From Hormiphora californensis (Eukaryota; Animalia; Ctenophora), in NCBI GenBank assembly GCA_020137815.1, contig CM035354.1, positions 3,534,001 through 3,598,000 on the forward strand: 64,000 nucleotides of DNA, read 5' to 3'. Below are positions 1 to 19,423 of the stretch, one piece after another. The notes beneath the pieces are model-generated. The model had not been told where the DNA came from. It worked only from the letters and a program-made list of their open reading frames with translations, and searched no databases. The position numbers were made by a program, and so were the translations under genes. Each line of letters begins with the position of its first letter. Positions within the stretch are counted from its first letter, which is position 1.

Positions 1-931
1 AAACGGGAATTATTGTATTCTTGATTAGCCGTTTGTACCGGATTTTCCAATGCCATACCTCCCATCTTGACGGGGAGTGCTAGGATCCTCCTCTCAATGT
101 CCGAGATATGCTTTCCCACAAATAGGGGTATCAGCTTGTGCCTCAGGATGTCTTCCATAGGTTGGAACAAGTGCCCTATATCAGGTAGTGTTCGCTGCAG
201 GTACGACCACTTCATTTTCAAACTGCGGACATAGTTCGAATATGCAAGGTGGGGGTGAGTTTTCGCAACAGTAACCAGGTTTTCAAGGCAGCTCACCCAT
301 TCGGAAACTTTGTTCGTAACAAATGTTGTCTTGAATTCAGTCGATCCGATTGCTGCACCGAGGTGTCTGGCACCAGCAGTTGTAATCTGTACACCGGTCT
401 CACCGAATAACTCCTGTGCCTTCTCCAGGTGGTGCTCCTTTGCGATCAGGACACATTTATCGGGGTTGATATGGTACCCGAATGCTGGACCGTGTGTTGT
501 GATGATTTCGTACCACTCATGTAGTCCAGAGATGGTTCCTGCAGCATTTCCATCGTCAGCGTACCATACCTGCAGTACATCTTCGAGATCAGCCAGACTA
601 ATCAGGGGGAGAACGCCGATACTGTACATTGCCATTGCAGATGGACAGCCCTGCGTGGCACCCTCTTCGCTCATCAACACTTGGTTTCCGACGTACAATG
701 GTGATGGTGCCCCGTATAGATTGTTGAACAGTTGTGCAAGTATGGGACAAAGTCTGTCAACACTATGCAGCGCAAGTCCTCTGTTCAAGCGATTGAAGGC
801 GTTACTTGCATCTAACAGAAGAGCACCCTCACAATCAGCTTCCTCAAACCGATCGGATAGTGAATGAATGGCTGCCTCACAGCCGCCAGACTGCCCTGCA
901 GCCAACTGTACACAGTTTGCAGCAACTTTAA

Positions 932-1601
932 AGTAAGAGTGGCGCGCCGTGTTTTCTCACAAAACTTAGTGGATGAACGGGGAGTACCACCAGGACCATT
1001 GGTACGGTATCGAAAATTTCCAATTCTGTCTCGTTCATTAGTTATGACGTAATATGTTCATTATTTCAACTTTCATAAAACTGCTCTTCAGAAAAATCTG
1101 TACATTGTGGATTGAAATGGATGCTTGCATCGTGTTCAGCGTCAAAAAATAGCCGGGGTACCAAATTTTGGTGTCTCTACCTTGTCTGTGACGCGAGATA
1201 TCGACAATTATCAAAAACTACCAAAATGGGTGAGAGAGAGATTGTTATCTTTGGGTGCTAGTTGTTTCTGCGCGCCACCCACTTGTAACAAACTCTCTTT
1301 CTCTCACTTTGGTCGTTTTTGATATTTGTCGATATCTCGCGTCACAGACAAGGTAGAGACACCAAAATTTGGTACCCCGGCTATTTTTTGACGCTGAACA
1401 CGATGCAAGCATCCATTTCAATCCACAATGTACAGATTTTTCTGAAGAGCAATTTTAGAAAAGTTGAAATAATGGACATATTACGTCATAACTAATGAAC
1501 GAGACAGAATTGGAAATTTTCGATACCGTACCAATGGTCCTGGTGGTACTCCCCGTTCATCCACTAAGTTTTGTGAGAAAACACGGCGCGCCACTCTTAC
1601 T
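932..1601. mobile_element. Non-autonomous foldback DNA transposon (Kolobok-like MITE), 670 bp
   Basis: Near-perfect palindrome with ~300-bp arms and termini AGTAAGAG...CTCTTACT. TTAA is duplicated at 928-931 and 1602-1605. Excision restores the CRE frame (RVAIKVAAN). TTAA with RR...YY ends is the Kolobok signature; piggyBac has YY...RR. Confidence 0.8.
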
Positions 1602-2777
1602 TTAATCGCTACACGCTGGGAGAAGATAATAGCTTTGACGACTATTCTCCTGAACACTTCTCCAATACCGATTGGCCGAGTACCACCATCTGTCTTCTCC
1701 AGTGGAATCAGGCGAGACGAGCAGAATATTGCAAGAAAGTCACCATGAACTTCGGTAGTTGCAAGTTTCTGGGCAACCAAACTCAAGGCATCACACAGCG
1801 CCGTAGACGATTGTTTGAATTTCTTTGCACATAGGATTCTGCTCACCCCGGAGGCGTCAAAACCACTGGGACCACCTGAACCTTTGATATTTAACCCACA
1901 TTTGTAAATGCTCTCACCGGTTATGCCCTGAAATGTGACTGGCTGGTGGTCGGCAGGTGGGTCACTGTGTACATATTTGCTGCTGATAGGTGAAGCGGGT
2001 GGATGCTTCTTTTCAAGGTCCAGGAGTACCTCGTCAGTGCAGCTTTTGACTCCACATGTGTGTCTGGAAGGGTCAAGCCATCCCGTGGCTTCACTGGTCT
2101 GTCCGTTTCTCATTAGATCGACGAACCGTTTATTACACCGCTCCTCACTGGGGGATTGGTAATTCAGGGGTTTCTGGATTGCAGCAGCCTCACGGAATAA
2201 CTGATCAAATTTCCCACTTTTCCATAGCTCAAGTCTCCGCTCCAACAGGTTTTTGTGTCCACCAACCTTTGACTTTTTGCTCGGTTTCTGCAGGAGAAGT
2301 GCAGGAGCTAGCACTAGGGCTGATAATGCATAAATACAAATACAAATACAAATATACATTTATTGTCCGCTTTTCATTGTCCATATTATAAAGAACAACA
2401 CGAGTTCTGTTAGGTCTTGACTACTAGCATCACTTGGTGCGGACTTCGTCTCACTAACTCTCGTTTCAAAAGCGGTTAGTTTTATACCAAGGATTTCCAG
2501 ATATTTTTCAAGAAGATATTTTCTGAGGGTAATTTTTGTTAGTTAAACCATATTTAAATCGGATGATGAAATATACTGTCTCTGCTTACTGCAGATTAAT
2601 AGAATATGCTCTTGGATCTAGAGATCCAGAAATGAATATTTTAGCTCCAGGGCTTTAGCCCTTAAACAATCGATACTGTCTTATACAACCTGGGTGAGGA
2701 CTGAGGATCCGACTGCTTCACCTGTAGGAGAACCAAGGAGCGGAAGAGAAGTCATACTCGCTGTAGCCTGCATCTCA

Positions 2778-3205
2778 CCACACTGGCTGTACTTCTATAA
2801 GTAAAGCCCAACACACTCCACTACACCACACCATACCGACTGTACTTCTATAAGTAAAGCCCAACACACTCCACTGCACCACACCATACTGGCTGTACTT
2901 CTATAAGTAGAGCCCAACACACTCCACTACACTACACCATACTGGCTGTACTTCTGTAAGTAAAGCCCAACACACTCCACTGCACCACACTATACTGGCT
3001 GTACTTCTATAAGTAAAGCCCAACACACTCCACTGCACTACACCATACTGGCTGTACTTCTATAAGTAAAGCCCAACACACTCCACTGCACTACACCATA
3101 CTGGCTGTTCTTCTATAAGTAAAGCCCAACACACTCCACTGCAACACACTATACTGGCTGTACTTCTATAAGTAGAGCCCAACACACTCCACTGCACAAC
3201 ACCTC
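2778..3205. repeat. 53-bp minisatellite, ~8 copies, in the LINE 3' UTR
   Basis: Unit CTGGCTGTACTTCTATAAGTAAAGCCCAACACACTCCACTGCACCACACCATA starts at 2783, 2836, 2889, 2942, 2995, 3048, 3101 and 3154. Confidence 0.95.
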
Positions 3206-3264
3206 ACTGCAACCCTTCCACCCCCATACCCCAATTTTGGTGTCCATTTATAATTTATATTTCC

Positions 3265-3440
3265 CCCTTTTTTCTTTACCGCTTTTTTTTGTTGTCTTTT
3301 TTTTTTTTTTTTTTTTTTTTCTTTTTTTTTTTGGATCTTTTCTGCTTTACTTTTTTTTTTCTTTTTTTTTTTCTTCTTTTTTCTTCTTTTTTTTTTTTTT
3401 TTCTTTTTTTTTTTGATTTTTTAGCCCAGGCTCTTTTTTT
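3265..3440 (-). repeat. Long A-rich tract inside the LINE 3' UTR
   Basis: T-rich run on the + strand; it produces the spurious poly-Phe ORF. Confidence 0.9.
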
Positions 3441-3638
3441 CCGAGTTCTGGGGATCCGTCACATAAAAAGAATAAGTATTAAATATAAATTAGTAAGAAA
3501 GACCAGTTTAGAAAGCGTGAGTGAAAAGAGTACTGGTCGTTCTAACTTCACGGTTTCACACTCTAATTCGGGATCCTCAGCTCGCTCTCATCTCTCTACC
3601 ACAATTCTCATAGTATAAATTGTCTTCATACATTGTTT

Positions 3639-6554
3639 TTAACACTCGTATGCCTTCCGGAAGAAGTGGGTTTTCAGGTTGGATTTGAATGATGTGATGG
3701 ATGAGCTTTCCCGAAGAGAAGAAGGTAAGCTATTCCATATTTCCGGAGCAGCGACACTGAACGCACCTTTACTCGAACAATATCTGGCATAGTTCTTGTC
3801 AAGTAAGGTTTTGTCAGCATCCCTTCGTAGACTTTTTAACTTCGGTTGACGGAGTGTTATCATCTTCGATAGGTAAGGTGGGGCTATACCATTCAGTGTT
3901 TTGTATGTCAGTAGACACAACTTGTACTGTACTCTTTCTCGAACGGGTAGGAAATGAAGCTGTTTGCGAAGGTTTGTGGTGCCTTGGTAGAGGCGTTGTC
4001 CAAATACGAAACGGGCTGCAGAGTTTTGAATCTTCTGTAATCGACCGATGTCGTTGGCAGAAGAACCAGCAAGGAGGCTGTTACAGTAGTCCAGTCTGCT
4101 GTGTATTAAACTGTTGACGAGTTTGACTTTCAGATTAACACCCAACATTCTGTGGGTTTTCCAAAGATTCATAAGGGCTAGTTGACACGTCCTTACGGTT
4201 CTGGATACATGACCAGATAGGGAGAGCTCTGAGTCCAGAAACACACCAAGGTTCCTTACTAGTGTAAGTGGCTTTGTAGATTCATGGTTGCTCATCGTTT
4301 GAAGGCTTTCAGGGTTTTCTGTTTTATCATGTTTGTTGTTTAACACGATTATTTCAGTTTTGCTGGGGTTGAGTCTGAGGAAGTTCTTGGACATCCACGC
4401 TTTGATGTGGTTTAAGCAACCCTGCAGTTTCGTCTCGAGGTCTAGGAGAGAATCGTTGCTGAAAGAAACATACAACTGAGTATCGTCAGCATAGAGCTCC
4501 ACCATTAGTCCATAGTGCCTAGCAATACTTTCCAACTCTTTTGTGTACAGAATGAACAACAGTGGTCCAAGTATAGAGCCCTGTGGCACTCCGATGTTGA
4601 TGGCTAAGGGCGAGGATGTAGAGGTCTCAATTTTCACAGAAGCTTTCCTATCTTTGAGGTAGGAGGCAAACCATTCAAGGGCAGTACCTTCAACGCCATA
4701 ATTCCTCCTCAGTTTCCCAAGTAACAATTCATGGTTAATCGTGTCGAAGGCAGCACTGAGGTCTAGCAATACAAGTACCGCCTTCGATTTCGTGTCTGTA
4801 ATTAGAAGAAGATCATTCACTACTTTCACCAATGTGGTCTCAGTGCTATGATGTTTCCGGTACGCCGATTGAACTCCTGGAAACAGTTCGTTCGTCTCAA
4901 GGTGCTCCGTAAGCTGTATAGACGCACATTTTTCAATTAGCTTGGATATAAAAGCTAAGTTGGATACCGGTCTGTAGTTATTGAGTTCTTCCGGGCTTCC
5001 TTTCTTCTTGAACGAGGGTCGAATCAGTGATTGCTTCAGCTGTTCAGGAACTAAACCTTCTTGTAGGCTTTTGTTGACAATGTCAGAGATAAGAGGAAGT
5101 AACTTCGGGAGAACACCTACGAGTTTGCTGGTAGGGATAGGATCGAGATCACAGTGCTTTTTCTCCATAGATTGAATTATAGCACTGAGTTCCTCTTCAG
5201 TTACTTTTCTGAAGGATGAAAATGTGGCACCAGTGTAGTCAGTTTGTGGTAGTTCTGGCAATGGTTCAGATTGTTCGTTTTCAACTCTGATCGTCTCGTA
5301 GATATCCTCGATTTTCGATTTGAAGAAAGTGCCAAAGTTTTCTGCTGTTTCACTCGAAGAATTCCCGTTTGGAAGCTCCTGTGGGATCTTGTCTTTTCCC
5401 AGTAGTTTGTTGATTAACCCACTGACAGCAGCTGGATCATCAGCCACGTAGTCAAGCTTTCCACGATAGAAATTTATCCTGGTTTTCATGAGAAATCTGG
5501 ATGTTTCTTTCATAGCTTTATTCAGAGCTGTTCTAGCTTCTTTGTGTTCTTCTTTCTTCGTGGAGTCTTTCAAGGTCGTCTTCAGAGCTCTTTCTCGTGT
5601 CCTGCGGGAGGTTTTAGCTTCCTCACAAAGTGTATCATACCAAGGTGGGTGATCCGAGTCTTTAATAACCTTTTCCTGTAGTGGAGCTATCTCATCCCGT
5701 ATTTCTCGAAGTGAGACGTTGTACAGGTTGAGACACCCTTCCAGTGTAGAGGGACGTGGATTTGACATCAGCGGTGACTCATCTATTTTCATAGATAGGA
5801 CCTCAACAGTGAGCATTTTCATGTTTCTGCACAGAACAGCTTTTCTTTCTTGCTGAATTGGTTTTCCGACGTGTAAGTAGAATGTGACAGCATAATGGTC
5901 TGAAACGGAGGATTTTGCAACCTCGACTGCACTAATCCTAGGTGAAGCTTCATCATCTCTGCTTATCACCAAGTCCAATGTACCGCCACTTTCGTGGGTT
6001 GGATCCTCGACATGCTGTGTCCATCGCTCATCTACAAGCAAATCACGGAAGGAGTTTGAAGTATGATCATTGTCATCCTCAGTATGGATATTGAAATCGC
6101 CCAAGATAACAGGGTGTCCACTGAGGCCGTTTAGTGACGATAGGTACTCTTCGAATTCTGCCAAGAACTCCTTTTTGGAAGAGGACGGAGGTCTGTATAC
6201 CACAACCAATCTAGTTTTCTGAAGATGCCCGCCTTCAATCGTAGCTTCGATACATTCAAAAGTTGTTGGTTTGTTCTTAGTCTTGATAGGTATTACACGT
6301 AATGCTTTCCTCGCTAAGATAGCGACGCCGCCTCCTCTTGCCCCTCTTGCCGAACTATAGAGATTGTATCCTAGTTCTTTCATCAGTGCAGGGGTGACTA
6401 CGTCACCGTCTTCTAGCCAGGTTTCTGTCAAACCGAGTACGTCAAGGTCAAGATCGCAGCACGCCCCGTATATTTCACCAAGTTTGTTGTTCATCGATCT
6501 GCAGTTTAGATTCCCGTATTTGAGAGCAAGGTGCTGCGTTGACGGTAGTTTTTT
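3639..6554 (-). CDS. LINE ORF2: APE endonuclease + reverse transcriptase (frame is open upstream of the first ATG at 6494)
   Basis: GNLNCRS, LTETWL, ILGDFN, TLDLV, SDH (APE); YRPVSNL, LLDLSAAFD, GVPQGSILGP, YADD (4482-4493); L2-type C-terminus SRLDYCNSLL...LHFLPV...FKSNLKTHFF. Confidence 0.95.
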   Translation of the reverse strand, partial: KKLPSTQHLALKYGNLNCRSMNNKLGEIYGACCDLDLDVLGLTETWLEDGDVVTPALMKELGYNLYSSARGARGGGVAILARKALRVIPIKTKNKPTTFECIEATIEGGHLQKTRLVVVYRPPSSSKKEFLAEFEEYLSSLNGLSGHPVILGDFNIHTEDDNDHTSNSFRDLLVDERWTQHVEDPTHESGGTLDLVISRDDEASPRISAVEVAKSSVSDHYAVTFYLHVGKPIQQERKAVLCRNMKMLTVEVLSMKIDESPLMSNPRPSTLEGCLNLYNVSLREIRDEIAPLQEKVIKDSDHPPWYDTLCEEAKTSRRTRERALKTTLKDSTKKEEHKEARTALNKAMKETSRFLMKTRINFYRGKLDYVADDPAAVSGLINKLLGKDKIPQELPNGNSSSETAENFGTFFKSKIEDIYETIRVENEQSEPLPELPQTDYTGATFSSFRKVTEEELSAIIQSMEKKHCDLDPIPTSKLVGVLPKLLPLISDIVNKSLQEGLVPEQLKQSLIRPSFKKKGSPEELNNYRPVSNLAFISKLIEKCASIQLTEHLETNELFPGVQSAYRKHHSTETTLVKVVNDLLLITDTKSKAVLVLLDLSAAFDTINHELLLGKLRRNYGVEGTALEWFASYLKDRKASVKIETSTSSPLAINIGVPQGSILGPLLFILYTKELESIARHYGLMVELYADDTQLYVSFSNDSLLDLETKLQGCLNHIKAWMSKNFLRLNPSKTEIIVLNNKHDKTENPESLQTMSNHESTKPLTLVRNLGVFLDSELSLSGHVSRTVRTCQLALMNLWKTHRMLGVNLKVKLVNSLIHSRLDYCNSLLAGSSANDIGRLQKIQNSAARFVFGQRLYQGTTNLRKQLHFLPVRERVQYKLCLLTYKTLNGIAPPYLSKMITLRQPKLKSLRRDADKTLLDKNYARYCSSKGAFSVAAPEIWNSLPSSLRESSSITSFKSNLKTHFFRKAYEC

Positions 6555-7939
6555 GAAATACGATCATAGTGCTCTTTGTACGTTGGGCATTTAGGTGAGC
6601 CAGCATGGTGAGGTTTAACATCTGAGGAGAGTCCTGTATTGTTGATACAGTTTTTACAGCAGTGTTTCTCAGTGTCCTCTTTCAGTGAACAGCTTTCAGT
6701 AGAATGTTCTTCTGCACAATACATGCATGTCGCTGGATGGGATTTCTTCGGGCATTTATCAGGGTAGTGGCCAAGGGCTTGGCAGTGAGGACATCTCTTG
6801 ATGTGTACACGATGAGACACTCTGACGGAAGACATTTGGAAGAAGACCCTACCGTCAGACATAAGCTTGTCCTTCAGCTGCACTGGTAGTTTCAGGACAA
6901 TTGTGGCTAGGTCCGGGTCTGTATGCGTGCGTTTGAAATAGACAATGGAAAGGTCTTTGCAGGTTCTCAGAACTTCATTCTTTGCTGTTAGCTTCTCGAG
7001 ACAGAATTTTCTACATTCCTCAGTTGTGGCATCTCTTGGGAGTGAATCAACAGGGACAAACCTGAGTTCTACTTTTGACATTACCTCAGCGGACACTCTG
7101 GCAGTTTGCTCTAGCACTCCTGCAGTCTTCAAACATTCTGTGGCCAATCGTTGGCATTCCTCATTGGGAAACCACACTCTTACCGAGGAAGAAAAGTTTC
7201 TTGCTTGAGAGATAGGTATATTTTCCAAGGCTTTGTCGATAGCATTCCTCGTCTCCTTTACATCATCACAGTGGATCGTCAATCGAGGCTGGGGTGGAAG
7301 TGCTTTTCTCGCTGTAACCTTAGAGGAGGTTGTGCTTTGGATACCTGGGCGAGATGCAGCAGTGTTAGCTGTGTCAGTGGATGCTGTGGCGGTGGATTGA
7401 AGTGAAGATTTGCTGTTGGATGAAGGTAGCGGTGGGAAATTGTCATTGTTCATGATGCTGGGGGTGACGCTGTCAATACTCGCTTCAGATGTTACGGAAA
7501 TGGTGTTGTTTTGCCATGCGTTAACAGTTGTGTCGAAGTGAGAGCTGTTATCAGATGACTGGCTAGTATCTGTCATAAGCCTAGCAACCTTAATAGCTAT
7601 AGCTTCTAGAAAAGGACTACCAGGTTTGAGAAGCCTGGACGTAAAGATGCAAGCGCTGCAAACCCAGTCCTCAAGGGGAAACAAACCATCGTCTGATGGT
7701 GAAACAAGATCGCCTAGTGACTTCAGACCTACGCATTCGTCATGGAAACATGATTTACACGTACTGCACTTCAGCATGGACCTGTTTGTCATATTTCCAT
7801 TACACAAACATTGATTGGCAGAGGTGAAGTGACTTGGCGTTTGCACTGGCATCGCCTGATGGGAACCTCTAGGTGGGGTTGCGAAGGCTGAAAACTTCAT
7901 CCCGCTTCTTGTAGAAGAGGATGGAAGTTCAGAATTCAT
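6506..7939 (-). CDS. LINE ORF1 with PHD finger and C-terminal CCHC zinc knuckles
   Basis: CLC...MLKCSTCKSCFHDECVG...WVCSAC (PHD); CPHCQALGHYPDKC, CMYCAEEHSTESC, CKNC...HHAGSPKCP (knuckles). First in-frame ATG is at ~7939; the frame is open to 8035. Confidence 0.9.
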   Translation of the reverse strand: MNSELPSSSTRSGMKFSAFATPPRGSHQAMPVQTPSHFTSANQCLCNGNMTNRSMLKCSTCKSCFHDECVGLKSLGDLVSPSDDGLFPLEDWVCSACIFTSRLLKPGSPFLEAIAIKVARLMTDTSQSSDNSSHFDTTVNAWQNNTISVTSEASIDSVTPSIMNNDNFPPLPSSNSKSSLQSTATASTDTANTAASRPGIQSTTSSKVTARKALPPQPRLTIHCDDVKETRNAIDKALENIPISQARNFSSSVRVWFPNEECQRLATECLKTAGVLEQTARVSAEVMSKVELRFVPVDSLPRDATTEECRKFCLEKLTAKNEVLRTCKDLSIVYFKRTHTDPDLATIVLKLPVQLKDKLMSDGRVFFQMSSVRVSHRVHIKRCPHCQALGHYPDKCPKKSHPATCMYCAEEHSTESCSLKEDTEKHCCKNCINNTGLSSDVKPHHAGSPKCPTYKEHYDRISKNYRQRSTLLSNTGI

Positions 7940-8319
7940 CAGTGGATTGTGACTGTGATGGTTGTGAGGATTGTGTTTACTCACAGTCTCGGGATCCGCT
8001 CGTCCACTTATTGTAGGGTCATACGACTGAAACAATTGAGGGGGGGTGCCGCCTCAATAAATAGTTTTACGTTGTAGTTGATGAAAGTTTGAGACTCCGC
8101 AGCAGTGGATGTCGCGAAAAGGTTTGCCAGCCTAGTGAGTTCATCGATGAAACCTCTGCCAACTGCTCCAAATGGAACCTCAAACAAGTTGGGAGCCCAG
8201 GTGCTGATTAGTGGTGCAAGAGCCTGTAGCTTCACGAATACCTCCTCTGCATTCAAATCTCCCCAACAGTTCACCTGAGATAGCTGCGGTCTTGGTGGTG
8301 GGCACTGATTTACTGTTAC

Positions 8320-8510
8320 GCCAAACCGCGCCGTAGCTTTAAACGCCGTAACGTACGTCACGCGTTAAAATAAACTATTCTGCGATGTAAATTACGCGCG
8401 CATTAAAATTGCAGACATTTCATTTTCTGAGTCGAGTTTTCAAACTCTTTTTCAAAAGCTTTAAAATTTTTTGTAATTTGGCGCTTTTTTTGGCGCTCTT
8501 TTCGCCAATA
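8320..8510. promoter_or_regulatory. CpG-rich probable promoter of SLY1
   Basis: Local cluster of CG/CGCG immediately upstream of the ATG at 8605; similar to the patch upstream of the WD40 cluster. Confidence 0.45.
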
Positions 8511-8604
8511 TTCACCGTCCTACATAGATTTTAACTACAATCACCTTACCCTCTTAAAGGTTAAGTCACCCAGGATTCTGACTACACCAAACACACCACG
8601 AAGC

Positions 8605-19423
<10,819 letters not shown>

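Follow-up and report, generated by a model that had tools for sequence, protein, structure and literature searches.

Non-LTR retroelements must regenerate their 5' end in each round of transposition, and internal promoters and self-cleaving ribozymes are the known solutions to this problem. A few of these elements are tied to spliced-leader (SL) sequences. For instance, CRE, SLACS and CZAR of trypanosomatids and NeSL-1 of nematodes are restriction-like-endonuclease elements which are inserted in SL RNA genes and flanked by them. Relict spliced leaders of dinoflagellate retrogenes were reportedly described by Slamovits and Keeling in 2008. In such retrogenes, according to the available part of PMC5585692, trans-spliced RNA has returned to DNA together with its leader, an AG in the relict leader might act as acceptor, and the leader has been proposed to serve as promoter. 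Flatworm genomes hold 597 partial-leader loci which lie beside LINE and LTR elements and lack the rest of the SL RNA (PMC12582326), and six leader-bearing transposon loci are given for Schistosoma mansoni, for which chimeric assembly was also allowed (PMC5832876); in their accessible portions, both papers propose the integration of trans-spliced retrotransposon RNA. In Hydra, a leader is present on about 30% of the Iso-Seq reads from transposons; this is an observation at the RNA level, and the accessible text states no leader-headed genomic copies (PMC12220107). Trans-splicing is also widespread on ctenophore mRNAs, with 56% of Iso-Seq reads being trans-spliced, and 718 genomic leader copies in Hormiphora and 491 in Mnemiopsis are reported in the same paper, whose available part states no link to transposons (PMC8527503).

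The window analysed here, a stretch of 64,000 nucleotides of Hormiphora californensis, contains a young and intact LINE which is headed by a real spliced-leader exon. As in the trypanosomatid and nematode elements, a non-LTR element adjoins leader sequence; however, the endonuclease of the LINE is of the apurinic type, the exon belongs to the element, and the DNA on either side is unrelated and free of SL gene sequence. The flatworm loci resemble it in having a genomic leader at a transposon, but their leaders are partial and they receive only brief mention, as loci that were discarded, whereas the ctenophore case features a near-complete leader, intact open reading frames (ORFs), two resolved junctions and recurrence in diverged families. 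The dinoflagellate relics, as far as that paper is available, belong to host genes and are decaying and often stacked; here it is the retroelement itself that bears one undecayed leader. With L2/CR1 LINEs of ORF1 type IC the element shares a PHD finger and three knuckles, an ORF2 with endonuclease and reverse transcriptase, a short-repeat tail and the lack of a clear target duplication (PMC4120745, in part), yet its 5' end is a host spliced leader and not the start of an element-specific untranslated region (UTR). A full-text literature search, covering neither subscription journals nor Repbase entries, returned no report of leader-headed ctenophore LINEs or of a self-renewing leader cycle, and the accessible parts of PMC7986045, PMC4233971 and PMC12460157 hold nothing further on leader-headed elements. 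The phenomenon has precedents; what is new is its systematic and exact form, along with a renewal cycle that can be tested.

Anatomy of the insertion and its surroundings

One insertion of 5,759 bp splits an older retroelement in the window (Table 1). Contigs from two DNA sequencing runs, X3 and X6, carry the older element uninterrupted: they follow it to 8092 and then continue with 30 letters identical to window positions 2332-2303, and the reading frame of the interrupted element resumes at 2332. One T is ambiguous at each end of the insertion, and there is no longer target duplication. As the interrupted element is multi-copy, the contig possibly stems from a paralog rather than from an empty allele; the uninterrupted sequence is fixed either way. 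In the initial annotation, the LINE was said to begin with a 46-mer at 8098-8053 (minus strand), followed by GCGGCA. The letters are as described and a leader does head an intact LINE, but the contigs place its start at 8092 and not at 8098. Because they join 8092 straight to 2332, the seven letters at 8098-8092 are target DNA, and continuation of the 46-mer through uninterrupted copies, which had been named as an argument against the leader, holds for these seven letters only. Likewise, the first ~9 nt had been read as target overlap with microhomology; the target indeed resembles the leader start (AGTCT vs AGTTT), but the overlap is seven letters long. Owing to this resemblance, blastn aligns 44 of 45 positions across the boundary (8096-8052 against the SL gene). 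A TAT-like repeat of the insertion tail also resembles the next letters of the target.

Table 1. Features of the insertion and its flanks, in window coordinates
Feature	Position	Strand	Basis or remark
Spliced-leader exon copy, variant SL-B, 40 of ~44 nt	8053..8092	-	Insertion 5' end; 40/40 identity with SL RNA gene exons
Target DNA of the interrupted element	8092..8098	-	Uninterrupted X3 and X6 contigs; T at 8092 shared
LINE 5' UTR (113 nt)	7940..8052	-	Acceptor-like AG at 8028-8027; 4-codon upstream ORF
ORF1, 477 aa, intact	6506..7939	-	Pfam PHD; three Cys/His knuckles
ORF2 frame, 974 aa stop to stop, intact	3639..6563	-	First Met 6494
3' UTR, ORF2 stop to A-rich tract (~215 nt)	3423..3638	-	Sequence
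Impure poly(A) tract, ~140 nt, within the insertion	3283..3422	-	Tandem Repeats Finder
53-bp tandem repeat, 8.2 copies, within the insertion	2768..3203		Tandem Repeats Finder
Insertion 3' end: stem-loop region and 6-nt repeat tail	2333..2560	-	Homologous to the 3' end of metagenome locus L028
5' piece of the interrupted multi-copy retroelement, truncated near 8313	8093..8313	-	Depth step and loose end at 8313
3' piece of the interrupted retroelement with reverse transcriptase part	1..2332	-	Pfam RVT_1 E 1e-6
CpG-rich unique stretch, insertion to divergent Sec1 gene	8314..8604		CpG observed/expected 1.88

The flanks of the insertion consist of this other retroelement, without SL gene DNA. By a motif, and in line with the initial annotation, the interrupted element is putatively CRE-like; its RVT_1 match is weak, just under the curated cut-off, and its C-terminus lies outside the window. 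Its reverse transcriptase region is itself interrupted at ~928-1605 by a palindromic insertion, with 330-nt arms that are 95% complementary and an 18-nt spacer.

The inserted LINE has the make-up of an autonomous APE-type element. Both of its ORFs are intact, and ORF2, open throughout without a stop, combines an apurinic endonuclease (Pfam Exo_endo_phos, E 1e-16) with a reverse transcriptase (RVT_1, E 5e-33). The uninterrupted target was found, and the 6-nt repeat tail (2332-2354) and internal poly(A) also accord with this type. Judged on its PHD finger and knuckles, ORF1 has the type IC layout, and 14 relatives match it at 36-87% identity. In an alignment by eye, the start Met of two relatives, P0003 and P0004, falls on a GTG codon at 7985-7983 (minus strand), ~15 codons before ORF1 has its first ATG, suggesting a lost or non-AUG start. 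The C-terminal motifs of the LINE are presumably L2-like, and an L2 clade label is plausible; no named L2 or CR1 reference stands among 120 listed of 7,689 matches. Type IC does not fix the clade, since it is found both in L2 subgroup 2 and in CR1 subgroup 3, according to the available text of PMC4120745.

Two 3'-end signatures follow each other at 3422-2333 (minus strand), the 140-nt poly(A) and, ~950 nt on, the stem-loop with its 6-nt repeat tail; they may reflect a long 3' UTR, a 3' transduction or a template jump. Nothing convincing in coding capacity was found at 3282-2334. A search of 2200-8500 with Rfam for a ribozyme or known RNA at the 5' end returned one match, at chance level (E 0.19).

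On the other side of the insertion, a Sec1-family gene starts at 8605 on the plus strand; its best named match, at 78% identity, is from Mnemiopsis leidyi, and other animals reach at most 53%. The CpG ratio of the stretch in between is the highest, reached by none of 220 tiles of 290 bp, and we infer that this stretch is a candidate host promoter. Long ORFs at 12419-15712 (minus strand), labelled by eye as receptor-like with cysteine-rich LDL-type repeats and transmembrane helices, sit in a large Sec1 intron (~11068-18876) on the opposite strand, as a nested intronic gene.

Leader exons in genes, elements and sequencing runs

The likeness to a spliced leader that had been noticed at the outset is that of a true exon copy and not of a diverged look-alike: 8092-8053 (minus strand) agrees at all 40 positions with the exon of SL RNA genes at three loci (L016, L017 and L029), which come from marine metagenomes and not from the window's own genome. 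Twenty-one of these positions were free in the search pattern, and the chance of all of them matching is ~7e-13; the expected number of exact 40-mer occurrences in the window is 6e-19. In the genes, the exon continues with a GTAAG donor and a short structured intron, and a T-rich Sm-like motif can be read by eye. After the exon, the window reads GCGGCA, of which one letter only matches the gene. The initial annotation was therefore right that the locus, having no GT donor or SL intron, is not an SL RNA gene, and a gene remnant with a GC donor is rejected as well, since true genes continue with GTAAG and their intron differs. From the SL genes, the mRNA-like loci described below and the published leader, the exon appears to begin AGTTT and, in SL-B, probably measures ~44 nt; the GG start given in the initial annotation belongs to the cDNA form.

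A second variant, SL-A, is the published Hormiphora leader minus its first G and differs widely in sequence from SL-B. One locus (L026) holds two tandem SL-A RNA genes in alternation with 5S rRNA genes, the tandem unit measuring 778 bp (L026:263-1513), and the SL-B genes at the three loci above lie in a different unit; no Rfam match at gathering score was obtained in L016 and L029. By their contig names, both variants are present in the same two assemblies. L016 and L029 are 87% alike overall and identical in the exon; as leader exons are strongly conserved between genes, exon identity alone is no proof of renewal. With up to three mismatches allowed, the SL-B motif matches the window once, at the LINE itself, and SL-A not at all.

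Further copies were sought in contigs of public sequencing runs, those with small shares of the stretch being left out, and by scanning metagenomes with a pattern of 19 fixed letters derived from the window and from the Hormiphora leader in PMC8527503. The scan is blind to copies mutated at the fixed positions and to copies without a leader. It returned 34 loci; after 16 unrelated chance matches had been dropped, 18 remained with one of the two exact leader cores, namely four SL genes, four mRNA-like loci and ten element-like heads. The nine matches in prokaryote genomes fall in bacterial records and were taken as chance, and viral contigs gave two chance pattern matches and no ORF1 relative. 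The mRNA-like loci have SL-A at the start and a long intronless ORF within 1-26 nt of it; no mRNA with exact SL-B was seen, all four of these contigs being SL-A.

Among the element-like loci, L007, L009, L010, L019 and L036 code for proteins related to ORF1 of the window LINE (profile E 4e-25 to 1e-16). An endonuclease start follows ORF1 in L009 (ORF2 profile E 3e-4); a similar start read by eye in L024 was not confirmed by this profile, which supports L009 only. A related PHD start is present in L032 (E 7e-7), and L024 and L034 are likely to carry element ORFs. L028, a leader-headed element of 1.2 kb with a single ORF, shows homology at its 3' end to the last 230 nt of the insertion, and L020 is 26% identical to L028. 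The ORFs of L020, L024, L028 and L034 received no name from Pfam or the protein atlas, and the atlas look-alikes of L028 and L020 are unnamed ctenophore clusters. Both of the latter (L028:1-1252, minus strand; L020:54-1258) span 1.2 kb with a single ORF1-like frame and no reverse transcriptase, and the tail of L028 is of the same kind as that of the insertion; from this layout they are possibly non-autonomous ORF1-only elements, a type which we take to be HAL1-like. Five of the ten element-like loci are genomic, since at least 40 letters of unrelated flank lie upstream.

The junctions are highly uniform. In all 11 copies, that is, the ten loci and the window, the leader match stops at the last base of the exon; L019 shares two extra letters (GT) beyond it and then diverges from the gene intron. 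At the upstream side, the ten loci match zero to four of the first four exon letters, where some T matches may be due to chance in AT-rich flanks, and none reaches gene DNA beyond the inferred first base. The first 1-4 leader letters are missing in 10 of the 11 copies, and letters to position 1 or 2 survive in four of the ten diverged elements. Over the ten element-like loci there are zero mismatches to the gene at 202 of 202 free positions. An exact join at the exon's 3' end, a 5' end near the cap site and absence of gene flanks, as expected of retrocopies, were found in 11 of 11, and stacked leaders in none. In a five-member SL-A clade, the 39-nt leader is invariant, with 49-80% identity in the next 120 nt and 43-61% in ORF1. 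Additionally, both variants occur on related proteins: the window's ORF1 (SL-B) is 22-29% identical to the SL-A ORF1s, and L028 (SL-B) and L020 (SL-A) show the identity given above. Leader heading is apparently a rule among other ctenophore LINE-like elements. Acceptor-like TTTTAG, TTTCAG or CAG directly follows the leader in L020 (96-101), L024 and L032; these sites seem unused because their use would shorten the element.

In the sequencing runs, an X3 contig covers 8080-8024 with no differences at a depth of 181, compared with 137 in ORF1 and ~40 in nearby unique DNA. Evidently, several copies share the SL-B/5' UTR junction, although summed contig depth is no copy number, and this junction is present in independent DNA runs. 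Over the leader itself, contig depth exceeds these values by a factor of some hundreds, and the flanks on either side are numerous and varied. X21, by guess an RNA run, holds next to none of the LINE; a 36-nt contig of it, with two differences and a depth of 440, ends exactly at 8053, as a branch point would, and its two deepest leader contigs differ from the window at two positions. X8 contributes a 32-nt exact leader piece. Two X21 contigs (8030-8067 and 8044-8080) contain the leader end and the first 23 or 9 nt of the LINE 5' UTR before passing into other sequence, which suggests a short 5' module common to different leader-headed elements. Raw RNA reads from a LINE transcript with the leader at its head were not encountered. 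The acceptor-like stretch which had been pointed out ~26 nt downstream is present and ends at 8027, but it has no support as the site used: no joint of 8053 to the AG at 8027 occurs among the contigs listed.

Origin of the leader

This copy probably derives from an RNA whose leader was added by trans-splicing, a judgement which covers both the reading preferred here and the source-copy alternative described below. In each of the 11 copies the join lies exactly at the exon boundary, which suggests that it was made by splicing. Alternatively, the leader might stem from a template jump during reverse transcription, with SL RNA or a different RNA that carried a leader as the second template, or an assembly chimera might be involved. 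The internal poly(A), followed after ~950 nt by a second and different tail, may itself mark such a jump, and an X3 contig crosses the site unbroken, so the insertion is not seen in X3. A jump, however, would not halt at the last exon base 11 times out of 11, and against a chimera stand the leader-UTR junction in independent DNA runs and the fact that the interrupted element continues beyond the 5,759 bp without skipping a base. For the 5' junction these two possibilities are largely refuted, and we regard them as very improbable.

Under the preferred reading, the LINE RNA would be trans-spliced and then reverse-transcribed up to its cap. The cDNA, complete or nearly so, would anneal to the target over AGTCT/AGTTT, the target letters being kept, and the new copy would have neither a promoter of its own nor the outron. 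Its transcription would depend on read-through that starts in host DNA, in this case possibly within the CpG-rich stretch ~220 bp upstream. The upstream RNA would then serve as outron and the terminal AG of the copied leader as acceptor, so that a fresh leader would replace the old one without trace. This AG would be the only acceptor regenerated unchanged, because splicing at an AG beyond it would cost the element part of its sequence. Such a repair step would also explain the survival of the leader's first letters. The full self-renewing cycle, in which trans-spliced RNA is reverse-transcribed to the cap and the leader is renewed in every round, is put forward tentatively, at not quite an even chance. 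Repeated rather than single joining appears favoured because no private leader change occurs and because the first letters survive despite the loss of 1-4 of them in 10 of 11 copies. Against renewal, leader type tracks family: all members of the five-member clade have SL-A, and the window family shows one SL-B junction contig near body depth (181 vs 137). The mRNA-like contigs have SL-A in four of four cases, and the family-wise pattern of leaders also fits inheritance. Furthermore, the leader ends in GAG and shows no clear pyrimidine tract. GAG is the least used 3' splice site trinucleotide in the spliceosomes studied, which may not hold for ctenophores.

The family-wise pattern leads to another explanation, by which the leader was captured by trans-splicing once or a few times and is now fixed and inherited within each family as an internal promoter or translation leader, the cycle running without splicing. 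In the small sample available leader type does follow family (SL-A in 5/5 of one clade, SL-B in the window family), a promoter role was proposed for relict leaders of dinoflagellate retrogenes (PMC5585692, available part), and the sequence past the leader recurs in two X21 contigs, over 9 and 23 nt. The 5' UTR of the window LINE pairs with the leader's last letters in a hairpin (p = 0.01 at 30 nt and 0.10 at 45 nt, 200 shuffles), but this is not general: over 11 elements the combined p is 0.09 (30 nt) and 0.29 (45 nt), against 0.11 and 0.26 in the four mRNA-like controls, and the junction hairpin was rejected as a general feature. Strong selection on the leader is conceivable, given that SL exons show conservation across genes and species; nevertheless, there is no private substitution at 202 free positions in diverged elements, though SL-A and SL-B differ widely, and a fixed leader would wear away, given how often its first 1-4 letters are lost. 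A leader of this fixed kind is considered rather unlikely. The initial annotation had left the choice between trans-spliced RNA and a fixed mimic undecided; trans-splicing with reverse transcription fits better in view of the exact boundary, the zero divergence from the gene and the 5' letters kept, but the two signs which it had named for trans-splicing were not found: no two leader variants at one junction in one family were seen among 20 listed of 64 loose ends, 24 listed of 603 contig pieces or the metagenome loci, and no parent locus with outron and acceptor among 20 listed of 64 loose ends.

Trans-splicing could also act without renewal, if the RNA came from source copies which keep promoter, outron and acceptor. 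The leader-headed copies would then be promoterless by-products, and new sources would arise from occasional unspliced RNA. The exact boundary and perfect leader are accounted for equally well in this way, no splicing at GAG is required, and the account agrees with the reading given for the flatworm loci in the accessible part of PMC12582326. The junction depth allows a minority of other 5' ends; on the other hand, no contig in which the LINE 5' UTR continues into non-leader DNA is found among 20 listed of 64 loose ends. The metagenome data barely touch this alternative because the scan finds leader-bearing copies only. Source copies of this sort are likewise considered rather unlikely.

Implications for ctenophore retroelements

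Extended beyond this family, the renewal reading would mean that ctenophore LINEs of several clades have dispensed with promoters and 5' ends of their own; each copy would be leader-headed, transcribed by read-through and re-spliced at the leader's AG, its 5' end being reset in each generation. This wider claim is possible but somewhat doubtful at present. Host trans-splicing would then be a third solution to the 5'-end problem of non-LTR elements, and one which repairs 5' erosion. Ctenophores make renewal testable, as they have two leader variants and full-length copies that are dated by their undecayed leader.

In the metagenome sample, 10 of the 14 genomic-looking leader loci are element-like. 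The 718 Hormiphora and 491 Mnemiopsis genomic leader copies, as given in the available part of PMC8527503, may thus include many LINE 5' ends. Many LINE heads among the leader copies would affect SL gene counts and gene models and would offer a simple tag for full-length elements. If renewal in several clades is true, many of the hundreds of leader copies in comb jellies would be transposon heads and not SL genes.
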